Origin: Planctomycetota bacterium
GTDB taxonomy: Bacteria > Planctomycetota > UBA11346
Reading direction: 5' to 3'
Assembly: GCA_038231435.1 (NCBI GenBank)
Contig: JBBRLJ010000023.1
Span: 28,137-92,136, forward strand
Length of the DNA: 64,000 bases
Of the stretch, positions 24,001 through 30,000 are shown piece by piece (the first letter of the stretch is position 1; each line of letters opens with the position of its first letter). The position numbers were made by a program.

Positions 24001-27000
24001 CTGAACTTCGACGCCAAGGTCCGCCGCGACAGCTACGACATCGAGGACATGTTCCACGGCCACATCTGCGGCGTCGATGCCTGGGCGCGCGGACTGCGCA
24101 TGGCCGTCGCCATCCAGAAGGACGGCAAGATGGACAAGTTCGTGAAGACGCGCTACAGCTCGTACGACAAGGGCATCGGCAAGGAGATCGAGTCGGGCAA
24201 GGCGACGTTGGAAAGCCTGCAGGAATACATCGTCAAGAAGGGCGAGGCTGCGCCGAACGCGAGCGCGAGGCAGGAGTACCTGGAAAATCTGTTCAATACG
24301 TATGGTTGAGTGAATTGGTGTGAAGAGTGAGGAGCCCATGGCCGTTTGGCCATGGGCTTCGTCGTTTGGTGGTGTCTGTATTTCCCAGCCTTCTAGCTCT
24401 CGCGCCATCTGGCCTTCGTGCCTTCTCCGCAGTCTGCTTTATGTCGATCGAGAAACGGCAAGGGGAGGGCTGGAGGGCACGAGGGTGCGAGGGCTGGAAG
24501 GACAGCGGACGGCACGTGTTGTTGTGGCGTTCTCCCCTGTCGCGCGATTTTCGCGATCGGCATCGGCGTCAAGGCCAGGCCGCGGAGGAACCGCGGTGGC
24601 CGGGGCGGCCAGCCTTGACTCCGATGCCGATCGCGGGTCGGGGCGCAAGGAGAACGGACATGAAGAGATTCGAGGATTTGAGCGTGTGGCAGAGAGCGAT
24701 GGGGCTGGCTGGAGCGATTCGGGAGGAGCGGGGGCTGCGTCGGAGCGGCGAGGGTCTGCGTGGTCAGATCCGCAATGCTGCGGCATCGATCTCCTACAAC
24801 ATTGCTGAAGGACATGGCCGCGCGGGCGATGGGGAATTCCATCGTTTCCTGGGGATCGCGGGCGGATCCTGCGCTGAGGTGCAGGCGCAGTTGCGCATGG
24901 CGTTCCGAGGAGGGTTCATCCTGCGGGAGCGTTTCATCGTGATGCTCGATGAGGCGATCACGATCGAGTTCATGATCCGCAATCTGCAGCGGAGGCTGAG
25001 GCCGCCGTAGTCACCCGGCGGATGAGTTTCCCGCTTTCCGCCTTCTCACGTCCTCGGTGCGCGCGATGATGGCAGCGGTATGCCACCCCCCGTCCTCTTC
25101 ATCGATATGTGGCCGGATGTCCTACCGCCCGGCGTCATCCGTGATCGGTTCCATGATGTGCCGGGGTGCGCCAAGGATGATGGGCTCGAGCTGGTCGTCG
25201 CGCATCATTCCGCCGTTTATCCGGCAGAGTGGATCTCGCGACCGCCCGTCGCGATCATGCTGTCGGGCAGCAAGCTCAATCTGGTTGACGACCCATCCGA
25301 GGATCCCGTCGACGGCACTCCGCTGTCGCGGTTCCAGGCGGTGACGAACCTGCTCGCGGCGCTGCCGAAGGTGCCGACGCTCGGCATCTGCTTCGGCCAC
25401 CAGTATCTCGCCAAGCAGGCCGGTGGTCGGCTGGCGAAAATGGCGAAGACGCGCGTCGACAACGACTTCACCATCGAGCAGGGAGAGCCGCACGCGCTGA
25501 TGGCCGGTCTGCCGGAACGGCCGAGCTTCGTCGAGAGCCATGGCTGGCGCGTGGTCGAGCCCGGATTCGGATACCGTGTGGTGGCCACGTCGATGGACGG
25601 CATCGAGATGGTGCAGCACGCGGATCTGCCGCGGGTCGGCGTTCAGTTCCATCCGGAATACTACCGGCGCCAGGACCCCACGCGCCAGCACGGACGCGCA
25701 TTCCTGAGCAACTGGTTCCGCTCCCTAGGCGACCGCCGCGCATGAGCCTGTTCACGCCCATCGTCTCCGCGCGTCGTGAGATCGCCAAGAACCGCTTTCT
25801 CACCTACGCTGAGGAGGACCTCACCGACCGGCTGGGCCATCCCTACACCTACTACCAAGTCGAGGCGAAGTGGGACGCGGTGGTGATCGTGCCGGTGCTC
25901 GATGATGGACGGCTGGTGCTCGAGCGTATCTACCGCCACCCTTACCGCGGATTCATGCTCGAATGCCCGGCGGGCGGCATCGAGACCGGCGAGGATCCGC
26001 TCGCCGCCGCGAAGCGCGAGCTGGCCGAGGAGACGGGATACCAGGCCGGTCGCGTCGCCAGCCTGGGAACTTACGAGGCGATGCCCGGCCTCCTGCGCAT
26101 GCGCATGCATATCGTGCTCGCGTTGGATCTGGTCGCGTCGGACGTGCGCAAGCTCGAGGCGATGGAGATCATGGAGATCGAGCTGATGACTGTCGAGCAG
26201 GCCTGGAAGGAGGCCGAGCGTCAGCCGGCCAGCTCGTTCCTGACCATGGGCTTGCTGTATTACGGCAGGTGGATGGCGGGTAGGGGGATCGAGCGACCCG
26301 GAGCCGAGTAGGAGTCCGCACGTTACGGTTGGGCACAGGAGGGTGCGCCTGGCGGCAGTGGATCCGGCTACGGCTACGGCAGCGGCAGGAACGGCGTCTG
26401 GTCGAAGCGGTCGTCGAGATCCTCGTAGACGGCGGTGATGTCGTCGATCGGGATGTAGACGCGGTAGCGGTGGGCCTCGGCGCCGAACTGCTCGATGGCG
26501 TCGGCAAGCAGGATGTCCCGTTTGCCTTCGTTGAACTTGTTGTCGGGATTGTAACTCTTCCAGATCTTGCGACTCATCTCCGGAGACCAGTGCAGGCAGC
26601 GCACCTCGCCGACCACCACTTCCTTGCGCACCTCGGTGATCTTGAGCAGGAAGCGCTCGCCGCGCCGGACGATGACGGTGGCGACGCGCTGCTCGTTGAC
26701 GAAGGCCTCGAGGACCTTGCTGATCGATCCCGGGTTGTCCGTCCCGGGTACGATGATCTTCTTGTCTCCACTCATACGAGGCGATCGCCGAGCTTGGCGG
26801 CCAGCTTGGTGCGCCACGCGGCGGCATGATCGGCCTGGGTCGGCGCCAGGCTCTCGACCAGCTTGCCGATGTTGCGGTTGTGGTCGAGGCGCTCCTGGTT
26901 GACCGCGACGATGGTCTCCGAGGTGATCAGCTCCTCGCCGACCACGCACAGGCCCGGGGTCAGCGCCACCGTCGAGCCGCTGCGCACGATGTAGATCGCG

Positions 27001-30000
27001 ACGCGGTCTTGGGTCGCGCAGGTCGATTCGATGTCCTTGGGGCCGCTCTCGAAGCGGATGCCGTGATCGGGTGCGTCGAGGATCAGACCGTAGATCTCCT
27101 CGTATTGCGGGTCGATGAGCACGCTCACGCCGCGCAGCATCTCGAGCTTCGGGTCCTTGCCGTGGTCGGCCCAGCGGCGCGAGCCGCCGAGGGCCTTGGT
27201 GCGGTTCGCCATCGGCTGGCTCATCAGCACGCAGTGACCGAGATAGTCGTCGAGCCCGAGGCTGCCGAGGATGCGCACGTCGGTGTTGGCCTTGATCAGG
27301 TGCGCGGTCAGCTCCTTCCAATTGTGGATCTTGCCGGTGTCGAGCGCGTCGAGCAGGGTGGCGTGGAAGGCGTCGTAGCAGGTCAGGGACAGGTCGCGCT
27401 TGTGCTTGCGCAGGTAGGACGGGGTCACCTCGTGCTCGGTGCCCATCAGCAGGGCGCGCACCGGCGCGACGTTCTTGGCGTTGGCGGGGACGAAGTCGAA
27501 CTCGATGTGGTTGAACACCATCCGGCTCGGCTTGCCGGGACGGGTGAGATCGAGCTGCAAGTGCAGGCTCAGCGCGGCTTCACGGATCTCGGGGTCGGTG
27601 TCGTGGCGCAGCGCGTCGAGCATCATCTCGACGCCGCTCTTGCCGGTGTAATCGAGCTGCACGTTCCCCTGCTCGTCGTGATAGCGGCGCATGCGTGCGA
27701 GCGCGTTCTCAACGTCGCCCAGGTCGTGGCCGAATCTATCGGCGGCGCGCAGCGTCGCGTCCATCTCGAAGCCGCTGTTCTGCCAGAGCGCGATCAGGCC
27801 CTCTTCAAGCTTGACGCGGCGCTTGTCCTCCTTGATCAGCCGACGGATCGCCGTGACCACCTCGGGCTTGATCCAGCCGATGGTCACGAGCTTCTTCAGG
27901 ACATCATCGAGGCTGCCGCCTTTGGGGGGCACTGCTACCAAGACGGGTTCGGGCATGCGAGGCGCCTATACGGACGAGTGTAGCGATGCGAGAGCGACAG
28001 CTTGGGCCTCAGGGCCAGGTCGCAAGGGACGGCGGAGTACCTGTGATCCGACGGTTGGTCGTTTGTCGTCGGATAGCCGGGGAGTTCGTCGGACAGGCGG
28101 ACAGCGGTCGCCGTCAGGGAGGTCGAGCCGTCTGGTATCGACGACGGATCACGCATCAAAAACGATCGACGTTCACCTCTTCCACGGCCTGTCGGCGTCG
28201 ATCGGCTCGCCCGCCGCTCGATGCCGCTCGAGCGCTACTTTGAGTGCCAGCAGTTCGGGGCCATGATCGGGCGGCACGCGGTTCCCTTCCTTCGCCGAGG
28301 CCAGTTCGACGGCCATGCGCGCGTCGAGATCCTTGGCGATCGCGCGTAGCGTCTCCTCGCTGCCGCCACCGCCGAGCTGATCGATGAAGATGATCAGCGC
28401 CAGGCGCTCGGTGACGTCGATGGTGGCGCGCGCGCGCGCGGCGAGCTCGGCATTCCAGCGAGCGTGATCGTCCGATTCCAGGATCCTGAACGCCCGCGCG
28501 GGCCACCATGGCGCTCCGAGGCCGAGCGCGCCATCGAGCACCGGCGCCAGTTCCGTCACGCTGAAGCGCTCGAGCTGGGCGGCATCGATCGGATGCGCGG
28601 GATCATGCAGATCGGCGAGCATCGCGTCGCGCTCCATCATGCGCGGCGCCTCAGCCGCGTGATCGCGCCACCACAACGTCCAGGCCTGGCCGGCGCCGGC
28701 CTTGCCGGTGAGCGCGTGCAGGGATGCGGCGGCGGCGTCGCGCAGTTCGGGCTGCGGCGCTTCGGCGGCGACGCGGCAGAGCACCTGCCACGCGCGGCTG
28801 TCGCCATTCGCGCCCAACGCCTTGATCGCCAGCCAGCTCGTCCACGCCTGGCTCTTCGCGGGCGCCAGTTCGACCAGCGAGACCAGGGCCGGGCACAGCC
28901 GCGGATCCTGCAAGGTGGCGCTGGCGTCGAGCAGGGTGTTGCGCTGTGCGCCACGGGTCGCCGCGAGCAGGCGCGCGAGTTCGGGCACCGCCTCGGGCCT
29001 GCGCGTGACCATGCCGAGGCTGTCGGTCATCGCGCGCTTGGCGAGATCGTCGCCGTCGTCCTCGAGCTTGGCGAGCGGACCGAGCGCCCGCACGTCGCCG
29101 AGCGATCCGAGCGCCTTGGCGGCGGCCGCGCGGATCTCGGCCTCGGCGGCACCCAGGCATTCGACCAGGCGTTCGAACACACCGGGCCCCGTGCAACGGC
29201 CGAGCCCGAGCACCGCGGCCTCGCGCACGCGCGCCTCGCCATCGCGACTGAGCGAGAGCAGCAGGGGAGCCGAGTCGGCGCCGCCGATGCCGCCGGCGAC
29301 CTCGACCACGCGCGAGCGCAGCAGCCAGTCGCGGTCCTTGGCGAGGACGGTCAGATCGGGCAGCACCACCACGCCGCGCCGGATCAGGTTCGAGATCGCC
29401 GAGCGCTGCGCGCGGCTGTCCGAGCCGGTGAGCGCGGCGATGTCGTCCGACCACGGCTTGTCCCCGTGCGAGGGTGGCGCGACCCAATCCTTCACCGCGC
29501 CGGCGGCCTTGATCACATCCACGCCCTCGGCATGCGGAGCCTGGTCCTCGGCGGCGAGTGGGATGAGCGGGCAGCACAGGGCCACGGCGAGGATGGCGGC
29601 GGTCGGTCTGATCATGGCGCGCCATCCTGGGGCGGTGGACGGACGGCGGAAGGGCGATCATTGAGGCCCCGCGCGCGGGCGTTGCCGCGCGACGACACGG
29701 AGCCGTTTCGAGGCCGTTCCTTGAGGATGGCGCCCACGCGCGCTTGAAGCACCCGCGCCGTCAGGTATCAACCCGCCCCGGGGGCCACATGAGCGCACAA
29801 TTCGGCAGCTGGATCGGTTCTGGAGCCGCGGGCACCTGGAAACCCCGCATCGACGCGCGGCTGGTCGACGACCCGCGCTTCCCGGCGCTGCTGGCGACCG
29901 CGGCGGCGGGTGTGTCCTTCGCCGGCGCCTGCGCGCTGGTCACCGGCGCATCGGACGCGAACTCCATCGGCTACGCCATCGCCCGCAACCTCGCCCAGGG

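Follow-up and report, generated by a model that had tools for sequence, protein, structure and literature searches.

Two divergent proteins, g02407 and P0290, are our candidate enzymes for the first and second steps of histidine synthesis in a class of uncultured Planctomycetota, a reading to which we give a probability of about 0.7. g02407 belongs to the HisG superfamily, in which it is very divergent: it is a remote homologue of the ATP phosphoribosyltransferase (ATP-PRT) HisG and not an analogue. It is encoded in the window, the whole 64,000-nucleotide stretch of DNA that was analysed. P0290 (184 aa) is encoded elsewhere in this genome, outside the window on contig C16. The two families are linked by gene fusion, by adjacency and by a shared distribution.

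The locus and the gap in the histidine pathway

The gene for g02407 (P0001, 394 aa; 26772..27956, minus strand) is followed by that for g02406 (P0002, 133 aa; 26374..26775, minus strand), a lineage-specific protein that is conserved and has an invariant tail, TPFLPLP, at its C-terminus; the stop codon of the first and the start codon of the second overlap in an ATGA. Both open reading frames are real and conserved, as the first-pass annotation had held, with homologues in 44/48 and 46/48 family genomes, respectively. On the plus strand lie the genes for a NUDIX hydrolase (189 aa; 25742..26311; PF00293, 61 bits; NudE-like, 76.9 bits and below cut-off) and for a class-I glutamine amidotransferase (221 aa; 25080..25745; PF00117, 66 bits), which overlaps the NUDIX start at 25742..25745. 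The amidotransferase was considered as HisH and rejected: no hisH model stands among the 25 NCBIfam families listed out of 28, and the genome's HisH is encoded on contig C2. No his genes adjoin g02407 in the family, and his genes are in any case scattered here.

HisD, HisI, HisF, HisA, HisB and HisH were all re-found in the genome, each on a different contig, and the holes in the pathway are exactly steps 1 and 2. The HisG model PF01634 gave no match at E ≤ 10 in this genome (87.64% complete), with 14/14 control genomes positive, and canonical HisG was found at E ≤ 0.001 in none of the 23 class genomes that are at least 85% complete. The absence reported earlier is thereby borne out, as is that of HisE, for which PF01503 gave no match at E ≤ 0.01 in this genome. 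Lack of a canonical HisE is not specific to the class, because by hand count a strong PF01503 match (E ≤ 1e-8) is also wanting in 81 of 139 HisG-positive Planctomycetota. HisZ is absent as well, its sole match falling short, at 178.9 bits, of the cut-off of 271.65.

A word-indexed search with g02407 returned 144 homologues, and the 120 listed are 60–100% identical. None of these 120 is informatively named, and 119 carry PF25936 (HisG_halo) as a precomputed assignment, which agrees with the conservation and the label given before. The relation of this type to the pathway was examined in a sample of 251 Planctomycetota genomes with a completeness of 85% or more, of which 157 have HisD and 94 do not. 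When the lists were compared by hand, the HisD-positive genomes comprised 137 with PF01634, 16 with the g02407 type, none with both and 4 with neither. Fifteen of the 16 belong to the family and one (G075) to another family, and the g02407 type occurs in 0/94 HisD-negative genomes. The distributions of the g02407 type and canonical HisG are complementary in three lineages: the family itself (f1), G075 and the archaeal genus Halolamina.

g02407 as a divergent member of the HisG superfamily

Searched alone against copies of NCBIfam and of Pfam, the latter without PF25936, g02407 matched no family, HisG models included. A narrow profile of its family (A1, 27 sequences) reached 11.8% in HHalign against canonical HisG, over the P-loop only, and found no HisG among PDB sequences. 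A2, a broader profile of 33 sequences that takes in remote members of the family, reached 97.0% (E 8.3e-11, 206 columns) against 14 canonical Planctomycetota HisG in an alignment that takes in the whole catalytic core (query 2–378, template 4–213). Against 177,635 PDB sequences, the best 12 matches of A2 were ATP-PRTs, headed by 1usy (E 9.3e-5), and three distant family members score 19–25.1 bits with PF01634 itself (cut-off 25.5). The earlier description of g02407 as non-orthologous, in the sense of unrelated to HisG, is therefore wrong.

A2 matches the PDB ATP-PRTs in three co-linear stretches: AIP-KGR at the N-terminus, DxGxxGxD, and the loop [ST]-G-x-T. Aligned and conserved in g02407 are K12-G13, P179, D188, D195, E310, S326-G327-x-T329 and S346-E-T-I-V-A; throughout the family K12-G13, both Asp of DxGxxGxD, E310 and the [ST]-G-x-T phosphate-binding loop are invariant or nearly so. 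Two canonical residues are replaced: Gly stands for the Arg of K-G-R (K-G-G) in P0124 and in each of the 27 sequences of A1, and an invariant Tyr (Tyr322) for the Asp of D-L-V-x-[ST]-G. For P. arcticus HisGS, the available text of PMC9734150 reports 25-fold and 42-fold losses of activity for R32A and R56A, and a loss of only about 4-fold for D179A/N. By a tentative mapping of ours, R32, R56 and D179 may correspond to the motifs altered in g02407.

The AF2 model of g02407 (pLDDT 90) places it with the same enzymes. In VIA-align, ranks 1–8 are all ATP-PRTs (Z 14.5–11.5, about 190–217 aligned residues), followed by solute-binding proteins at Z ≤ 10.5; in Foldseek, every row through rank 46 is an ATP-PRT among the matches listed. 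The likeness is stronger than had been noted earlier (Z 14.5 instead of 7–8) because the new model has a pLDDT of 90. The HisG-like two-domain core is formed by residues 1–30 and about 166–375, and a lineage-specific insertion of ~135 residues (about 30–165), with its own invariant D-K-R-R-x-K-x-E-E-G stretch, sits in domain I after strand 1 and helix 1 and before strand 2. What had been described as an extra N-terminal helical domain is this insertion, since residues 2–30 already match the N-terminus of HisG, P-x-K-G included.

In sum, g02407 shares with the HisG core (PF01634; HisGS of T. maritima, 1usy/1o63, and P. arcticus, 6fca/5m8h; the long forms 5ub9/4yb5 of C. jejuni, and 6czl of M. 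truncatula) a two-domain, type-II binding-protein-like architecture and a co-linear series consisting of the N-terminal strand with P-x-K-G, D-x-G-x-x-G-x-D, the pre-loop Glu, [ST]-G-x-T and S-E-T/A-x-[LV]-[IV]-x-N, and it holds the HisG slot in genomes with the rest of the pathway. It differs in falling under every curated threshold, in its insertion and two replaced residues, and in having neither HisZ nor, in the model, a C-terminal regulatory domain.

Candidate partners: P0290 and g02406

A lead to the second step came from an archaeal metagenome contig, on which a 176-aa gene has its start within an overlap with the gene for P0148, a member of the g02407 family. The best matches of this 176-aa gene are PRA-PH (PF01503, 20.5 bits) and PR-ATP diphosphatase (TIGR03188, E 1.4e-5). 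The same HisE-like domain is fused C-terminally to family members P0143 and P0151 (BLASTP 9e-28 and 1e-29). An HMM built from the three HisE-like sequences detected one open reading frame in our genome, P0290 (E 3.3e-8). Homologues of P0290 occur in exactly the same 16/251 Planctomycetota genomes as the g02407 type, and G075 has both genes on one strand, that of the P0290 homologue ~0.8 kb upstream of that of the HisG-like protein.

The P0290-family profile has four PR-ATP pyrophosphatases as its top PDB matches (E 0.005–0.023) and reaches 71.8% in HHalign against five haloarchaeal HisE. These profile comparisons show P0290 to be homologous to HisE, and as divergent from it as g02407 is from HisG. 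HisE proteins (PF01503/TIGR03188; 1yxb, 1yvw, 1y6x, 3c90) are its best and only consistent remote matches, and a helical E-E-x-x-E-L ... E-x-x-Q-x-x-Y-W pattern aligns with E-E-x-x-E ... E-x-A-D-x-x-Y-H of HisE. The differences are a length about twice that of HisE (176–184 aa), a C-terminal part with conserved D-L-x-E-M-x-x-[RK]-P-Y-L, scores that all fall below curated HisE thresholds, a Gln, as we read the alignments, in place of the Asp of E-x-A-D, and the fusion of the domain to one of HisG type. The his gene fusions enumerated in the available text of PMC1963479 do not include this combination.

We propose that g02407 would serve as the ATP-PRT of the class, converting PRPP and ATP to PR-ATP and PPi, and that P0290 would hydrolyse this PR-ATP to PR-AMP, the two acting ahead of the ordinary HisI, HisA, HisF/H, HisB and HisD; substrates, catalytic activity and the roles of individual residues are all inferred. 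The assignment of g02407 as the lineage's ATP-PRT, made in the first-pass annotation, thus gains from profile homology, fold ranking, complementary distribution and a HisE-like partner, and loses its claims of an unrelated origin and of an N-terminal domain.

The same account had made g02406 the partner of g02407. The ATGA overlap and adjacency in 33/44 genomes speak for a partnership; against it, the genes are unlinked in three genera and g02406 was not found in G075, the second Planctomycetota lineage. g02406 matches no Pfam or NCBIfam family, nor do any of its 206 homologues. Its AF2 model (pLDDT 67.5) resembles Sm/Hfq/SH3-like barrels (Z 8–10 over ~60 residues). Because neither HisZ nor the HisG C-terminal domain is present, one may speculate that g02406 is an accessory or regulatory subunit of g02407. 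It resembles those elements in position only, being small and translated together with the catalytic protein, and its predicted fold is a barrel, not HisRS-like or PII/ACT-like.

Archaeal relatives and alternative roles

The strongest alternative, which we nonetheless consider unlikely, is a two-step module of g02407 and the HisE-like protein that depends on PRPP and acts on another nucleotide or serves a different end, be it salvage, cofactor synthesis or signalling; a different protein would then be the class's ATP-PRT. This would suit both haloarchaea, where a canonical HisG is retained too, and reduced archaea. Named near relatives of g02407 are DPANN archaea (Woesearchaeota, Nanoarchaeia), reduced organisms that usually lack amino-acid synthesis. 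Transfer from archaea, as suggested before, is consistent with a quick tree. In four of five non-Halolamina haloarchaeal genomes HisG_halo stands alongside a canonical HisG (175–178 bits), and therefore membership of the family does not by itself denote "the" ATP-PRT. Haloarchaeal HisG_halo genes also lie in non-his contexts, with a gene of the metallo-beta-lactamase fold and, in Halolamina, GTP cyclohydrolase III around them; a coiled-coil gene is near in the 2/4 loci where it gave coiled-coil-type matches, with no such match in Haloferax. The Arg-to-Gly and Asp-to-Tyr replacements and the conserved NUDIX and orphan amidotransferase synteny, which histidine synthesis does not explain, point the same way.

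Halolamina, however, fits a role in histidine synthesis. PF01634 is above cut-off in 0/6 genomes, only the HisG_halo gene scoring (17–21 bits), and HisD, HisI and HisE are kept in 5/5, 5/5 and 1/1 genomes tested. Its HisG_halo protein (P0159, ~300 aa) belongs to the same wider family as g02407 by profile search (E 3.2e-5) and by the tree, and is likewise the only HisG-type gene. HisG_halo proteins differ from g02407 in their ~26% identity, in lacking most of the insertion, in their neighbours and in the canonical HisG resident beside them in those four other genomes; no paper was found under the name "HisG_halo". A module of other purpose would require HisG to have been replaced once more, unseen, in exactly the three lineages with this type alone (the family, G075 and Halolamina), it leaves the absence of the g02407 type from HisD-negative Planctomycetota without a reason, and both partners are closest to precisely the two missing enzymes.

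It is also improbable, in our view, that step 1 is as proposed and step 2 falls to the NUDIX protein or a small MazG-like protein instead of P0290. NUDIX enzymes hydrolyse nucleoside-diphosphate-X compounds, so the chemistry would be in character. The NUDIX gene, convergent to g02406 in the window, adjoins it there and in 7/20 relatives' loci (L023, L025, L026, L030, L032, L038, L040), in several of them directly downstream on the same strand; in an eighth, L031, it is one gene away, with the amidotransferase between and all three on one strand. MazG-like open reading frames with weak PRA-PH matches occur in 33/48 family genomes; both of the two examined score higher with MazG (37–42 bits) than with PRA-PH (25.6–25.9 bits), and this genome has no PF01503 match at the threshold given above. 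Proteins of either kind are common everywhere and none was seen fused to the HisG-like family. P0290, with fusion, adjacency and exact co-distribution, is a better candidate for the missing HisE than the neighbouring NUDIX gene.

Still less probable is a non-catalytic g02407, a ligand-binding or regulatory protein that keeps the periplasmic-binding-protein-like fold of HisG. Binding proteins and LysR effector domains do share that fold (Z 8.6–10.5), two motif residues are gone, and Sm/WYL-like barrels such as that of g02406 often bind ligands or nucleic acids. The ATP-PRTs nevertheless score 1 to 4 Z units above any binding protein, K12-G13, E310, both Asp of DxGxxGxD and the phosphate-binding loop are invariant or nearly so, g02407 has no DNA-binding or signal domain, and P0143 and P0151 carry an enzyme-like HisE domain. 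That nothing replaces HisG, the gene having been missed or the class importing histidine or an intermediate and being unable to start the pathway, is hardly credible: the class assemblies are all MAGs (61–96% complete) and one of 48 family genomes (G042, 72% complete; contig C331, 149.5 bits) has PF01634 above cut-off beside the g02407 type, possibly by contamination, but HisG is found in 0/23 of the more complete genomes against 44/48 for HisI and for the g02407 type, and at least six downstream his genes are unlikely to be kept across 18 genera without a first step.

Taken together, the usual first enzyme of histidine synthesis is missing from an entire class of uncultured Planctomycetota, whose genomes instead have divergent relatives of HisG and HisE that always occur together. 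This co-occurring pair points to a candidate alternative entry into the pathway.

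Locus and HisG kinship of g02407

The genome is a high-GC Planctomycetota MAG of 108 contigs, 87.64% complete. The open reading frame of g02407 (P0001; 394 aa) lies on the minus strand at window positions 26772–27956, and its stop codon overlaps, in the sequence ATGA, the start of g02406 (P0002; 133 aa), an ORF on its 3′ side at 26374–26775 on the same strand. On the upstream side, genes for a 480-aa HEAT-repeat protein (minus strand) and a 317-aa SDR (plus strand) occupy window positions 28173–30697; both are syntenic with g02407 at loci L023, L026, L030, L032, L034, L035 and L040. 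A 445-aa ORF at window positions 22972–24309 (plus strand) is presumably, judged by eye, a xylose isomerase look-alike. Scans around the genes for Rfam families and for promoters and terminators gave nothing beyond chance, with no histidine leader and no T-box.

Searched alone, P0001 matched no family in the copies of Pfam and NCBIfam used here and stayed below the curated HisG thresholds, with no PF01634 or TIGR00070 match at E ≤ 1. The A1 profile, built from 27 close homologues, found no HisG among PDB sequences and, against 14 canonical Planctomycetota HisG proteins, reached the P-loop alone (HHalign, 11.8%). With A1, HMMER was run over all 1.84 billion representatives and yielded 42 proteins (E ≤ 0.001), some of them distant members of full length; three distant members of the family score 19–25.1 bits on PF01634 against a cut-off of 25.5. 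Adding distant members to the profile changed the picture. The widened alignment of 33 sequences (A2) matched 14 canonical HisG proteins at 97.0% probability (HHalign, E 8.3e-11, 206 columns), pairing residues 2–378 of g02407 with HisG residues 4–213, the entire catalytic core. When 177,635 PDB sequences were searched with A2 (hmmsearch), the 12 best hits were all ATP phosphoribosyltransferases (ATP-PRTs; best E 9.3e-5), co-linear over an N-terminal A-I-P-x-K-G-R, over P...D-x-G-x-x-G-x-D, and over the [ST]-G-x-T loop plus the strand that follows. These profile comparisons show g02407 to be homologous to HisG over the catalytic core, at the superfamily level.

The predicted structure points the same way. 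An AlphaFold model of g02407 on A1 has a pLDDT of 90 and a pTM of 0.84, compared with a pLDDT of 71 for the earlier model. In a fold search independent of Foldseek, ranks 1–8 were all ATP-PRTs (Z 14.5, 14.2, 14.1, 12.8, 12.8, 12.8, 12.1 and 11.5), and solute-binding proteins and LysR domains followed from rank 9 on at Z ≤ 10.5; each Foldseek row shown, down to rank 46, was an ATP-PRT. Look-alikes in the ESM Atlas were PilZ or nameless clusters (best score 0.84) and were uninformative. The worry raised in the first-pass annotation, that fold matches of Z 7–8 are noise, is answered by the better model and by the interval separating ATP-PRTs from other proteins. The model predicts that g02407 has the two-domain catalytic fold of HisG, ranked above generic binding-protein folds. 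The helical part, earlier read as an extra N-terminal domain, has to be placed differently: since structural and profile alignments both begin at residue 1–5, helical residues ~30–165 are an insertion in domain I, placed behind its first strand and helix.

HisG carries an N-terminal K-G-R, an Arg at the beginning of strand 2, which stabilises pyrophosphate as the leaving group, and the PROSITE PRPP-binding signature E-x(5)-G-...-D-[LIV]-x(2)-[ST]-G-x-T-[LM]. Conserved residues of g02407 that align with HisG are K12-G13, P179, D188, D195, E310, S326-G327-x-T329 and S346-E-T-I-V-A. Among these, D188 and D195 belong to the D-x-G-x-x-G-x-D stretch, S326-G327-S328-T329 align with the loop of the PRPP-binding signature, and E310 with the Glu that precedes it. 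Two positions differ. All 27 A1 sequences and the Planctomycetes relative P0124 have Gly for the Arg of K-G-R; most other family members keep K-G-R. An invariant Tyr322 takes the place of the Asp of D-L-V-x-[ST]-G, and some distant members have D-[IL]-V-R-[ST]-G-x-T. R139 and R145, just ahead of strand 2, are invariant family-wide; together with K45-R46-R47 in the insertion they are candidate substitutes for the K-G-R Arg and the loop Asp. In P. arcticus HisG, R32 probably corresponds to the K-G-R Arg, R56 to the strand-2 Arg (here R145) and D179 to the loop Asp.

Distribution of the two HisG types

A six-frame search with PF01634 returned no match at E ≤ 10 in this genome and was positive in 14 of 14 control genomes, in agreement with the original observation that canonical HisG is absent. 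In the data used, the GTDB class consists of this single family (48 genomes), and none of its 23 genomes of at least 85% completeness had a PF01634 match, so the absence reported for good family genomes holds as well. The sole match over the cut-off among the 48 (149.5 bits) is in G042, a 72% complete MAG, at C331:2727-3218 (locus L001). It is the family's one canonical long-form HisG, in a MAG that also carries the g02407 type; the GC content of the locus, 71.3%, decides nothing on contamination. HisD, HisI, HisF, HisA, HisB and HisH were re-found in the genome under study as had been described, each on its own contig, and HisI is present in 44 of the 48 family genomes.

Homologues of g02407 likewise occur in 44 of 48 family genomes, at 57–88% identity. 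A word-indexed protein search found 144 homologues; among the 120 listed, names are missing or 'hypothetical', and 119 carry the precomputed label PF25936 (PF25936.1 on P0001). Both the conservation of g02407 and its HisG_halo label were reproduced.

We then compared, by hand, the lists obtained from one set of 251 Planctomycetota genomes of at least 85% completeness, used for all searches. HisG was found in 139 and HisD in 157. The A1 profile matched 16: 15 members of the family and G075, from another Planctomycetota family. Among the 157 HisD-positive genomes, 137 have HisG, 16 the g02407 type, none both, and four (G080, G118, G149 and G199; 86–90% complete) neither; HisG without HisD occurs in G103 and G112. 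The g02407 type is found in none of the 94 HisD-negative genomes. Because the 16 genomes represent two lineages only, this pattern is no statistical test, and beyond the sample G042, with both types, is a counter-example.

The few relatives with names include P0124 from Planctomycetes, P0131 and P0165 from Woesearchaeota, P0155 from Nanoarchaeia and P0159 from Halolamina. The haloarchaeal form is ~300 aa long, and a collection of species genomes contains 299 confirmed relatives (63–84% identity) in many genera. Canonical HisG (175–178 bits) stands alongside HisG_halo in four of five haloarchaea (Haloferax, Natrinema, Halovalidus and a Haloferacaceae archaeon). Family membership therefore does not make a protein the sole ATP-PRT, and the caveat entered in the first-pass annotation was well placed. 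The fifth genome, Halolamina sp. C58, has no canonical HisG. Five further Halolamina genomes also gave no PF01634 match over the cut-off, bringing the genus to 0 of 6; the weak matches there (17–21 bits) sit within the HisG_halo loci, except for a short, stop-interrupted match of 17.3 bits in G290. HisD and HisI were each found in 5 of 5 Halolamina genomes, and HisE in the one genome tested. At Halolamina loci L071–L076 (L073 included), in genomes G288–G293, the sole HisG-type gene is the HisG_halo protein. Halolamina, an archaeal genus in culture, thus shows independently what was seen in Planctomycetota. The haloarchaeal gene neighbourhoods contained no his genes and neither NUDIX nor HisE-like ones, and a metagenome scan with protein P0135 returned no relative.

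In a quick, midpoint-rooted tree of 39 rows, the g02407 family is set apart from canonical HisG (SH-aLRT 100), and the two Planctomycetota lineages are joined (100) within archaeal and nameless sequences. This placement fits a transfer from archaea, in line with the earlier proposal of sharing by transfer; it is proof neither of transfer nor of its direction.

Candidate partners of g02407

A candidate for the second step of histidine synthesis came from archaeal relatives, in which HisG_halo-type and HisE-like genes are fused in some lineages and adjacent in others. On L153, a 373-kb archaeal metagenome contig, the gene for P0148, a member of the g02407 family (10001–11266), overlaps the start of a 176-aa gene (11262–11789) that matches just two families: PRA-PH (PF01503, 20.5 bits, cut-off 21.3) and PR-ATP diphosphatase (TIGR03188, E 1.4e-5; 25.2 bits against a threshold of 42.7). 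The same HisE-like domain forms the C-terminal 160 residues of two further members, P0143 (529 aa) and P0151 (533 aa), with BLASTP E values of 9e-28 and 1e-29; the P0143 C-terminus matches TIGR03188 weakly (E 0.022). In the part of a his-gene fusion survey consulted here, fusions of hisD, B, N, I, E, F and H are given and hisG is not (PMC1963479). Divergently upstream on L153, at 9346–9825, lies a gene for an AbrB and ACT-domain protein, a possible amino-acid-sensing regulator.

An HMM of the three sequences, run over six-frame ORFs of the genome under study, selected a single ORF (E 3.3e-8), the 184-aa P0290 on the minus strand of contig C16 (67048–67599; locus L159, 6046–6600). Its neighbours encode a PIG-L deacetylase, sigma-54 activators and a BlaI-type repressor. 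In the sample of 251, 16 genomes contain a P0290 homologue, and they are precisely those that carry the g02407 type. The G075 homologue (E 1e-14) and the HisG-like gene share a strand; the former lies ~0.8 kb upstream, and argS is downstream.

P0290 falls below the curated HisE threshold, with no PF01503 match at E ≤ 0.1, and an HMM of five haloarchaeal HisE proteins found nothing in the genome. A phmmer search of PDB with the 176-aa L153 protein gave chance-level hits only, so a profile was needed. With A6, built from six P0290-family members, four PR-ATP pyrophosphatases came out on top of the PDB sequences (E 0.0048–0.023), and HHalign against haloarchaeal HisE gave 71.8% (E 3.5e-5), compared with 62.8% for the archaeal trio. 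On this evidence, of moderate strength, P0290 is a remote homologue of HisE/PRA-PH at the superfamily level.

Strong PF01503 matches (E ≤ 1e-8) were found, by hand count, in 61 of the 251 genomes: in none of the 16 with the g02407 type and in just 58 of the 139 with HisG. The other 81 HisG-positive Planctomycetota, complete genomes among them, have no match at this level. The HisE step seems to be poorly recognised across Planctomycetota. Weak PF01503 matches rise over the cut-off in 17 of 48 family genomes (maximum 25.7 bits), and both of the two examined were MazG-like.

A different candidate for handling PR-ATP is encoded next to g02406. A class-I amidotransferase gene overlaps that of a NudE-like NUDIX hydrolase at window positions 25080–26311 (plus strand), downstream of g02406 and convergent with it. 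The NUDIX gene adjoins g02406 in the window and at 7 of 20 fetched loci of relatives, and is one gene off at L031, where g02407, g02406, amidotransferase and NUDIX follow one another on a single strand. The orphan amidotransferase–NUDIX pair accompanies g02407–g02406 in many genera. This synteny is a reason to keep the NUDIX enzyme in view as a possible hydrolase of PR-ATP or of a side product.

g02406 itself is found in 46 of 48 family genomes (66–81% identity) and was not found in G075. It has 206 homologues; the 120 of them that were listed carry no Pfam family. T-P-F-L-P-L-P at the C-terminus is invariant. Of the 44 genomes in which both genes occur, g02406 and g02407 are adjacent on the same strand in 33, separated by 1.4 kb in one, on different contigs in eight (from genera g2, g16 and g17) and undecidable at contig ends in two. 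The g02406 model is moderately confident (pLDDT 67.5) and looks like a small barrel of the Sm/Hfq/SH3 type (Z 8–10, ~60–77 aligned residues); its fold search lends no support to a HisZ-like protein or to an ACT/PII-like counterpart of the HisG C-terminus. HisZ is absent from the genome, where the single TIGR00443 hit, at 178.9 bits against a cut-off of 271.65, is consistent with HisRS. The g02407 model ends in helices behind the core, and neither a HisZ partner nor a HisG_C regulatory module was found, the latter without a separate search with PF08029. Complex prediction for g02407 and g02406 scored 0.00 in two runs without controls, which is no verdict either way. A regulatory role for g02406 is possible but unsupported.

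A candidate route into histidine synthesis

Returning to g02407 and P0290, we propose that they are candidate enzymes for steps 1 and 2: g02407 would condense PRPP and ATP to PR-ATP and PPi, and P0290 would hydrolyse PR-ATP. We give this joint reading a probability of roughly 70%. The pointers to ATP-PRT activity, the phyletic pattern and the link to the HisE-like domain, are all indirect. g02407 belongs to a branch of the HisG superfamily already labelled by Pfam; in this bacterial class it is the only gene of the HisG type, and it is coupled to an undescribed family of long HisE-like proteins. A bolder scenario strikes us as unlikely: that the HisG_halo-type and long HisE-like proteins form an ancient, mainly archaeal module, a second and sequence-unrecognisable entry to histidine synthesis that moved into Planctomycetota and displaced hisG, and that the Sm-like g02406 (TPFLPLP) is a new activating or feedback subunit replacing HisZ in the clade without the K-G-R Arg.

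To our knowledge, histidine synthesis is regarded as among the most uniform of pathways. HisG is taken to be its universal first enzyme, subject to feedback control, and is a drug target. In the open-access literature we found no paper on HisG_halo, hisG-less Planctomycetes, a non-orthologous ATP-PRT or the histidine needs of Halolamina. If the proposal is true, HisG has a second, very divergent lineage that the standard Pfam and NCBIfam models, and probably pathway-gap tools, have missed, and that brings its own HisE-like partner and is without a known regulatory module. Automatic reconstructions would miscall the Planctomycetota class and Halolamina as histidine auxotrophs. The g02407-type enzymes, in which other residues stand for the K-G-R Arg and the loop Asp, would reveal which HisG residues are truly indispensable, and one would have to ask how flux is regulated when HisZ and a C-terminal domain are both missing.
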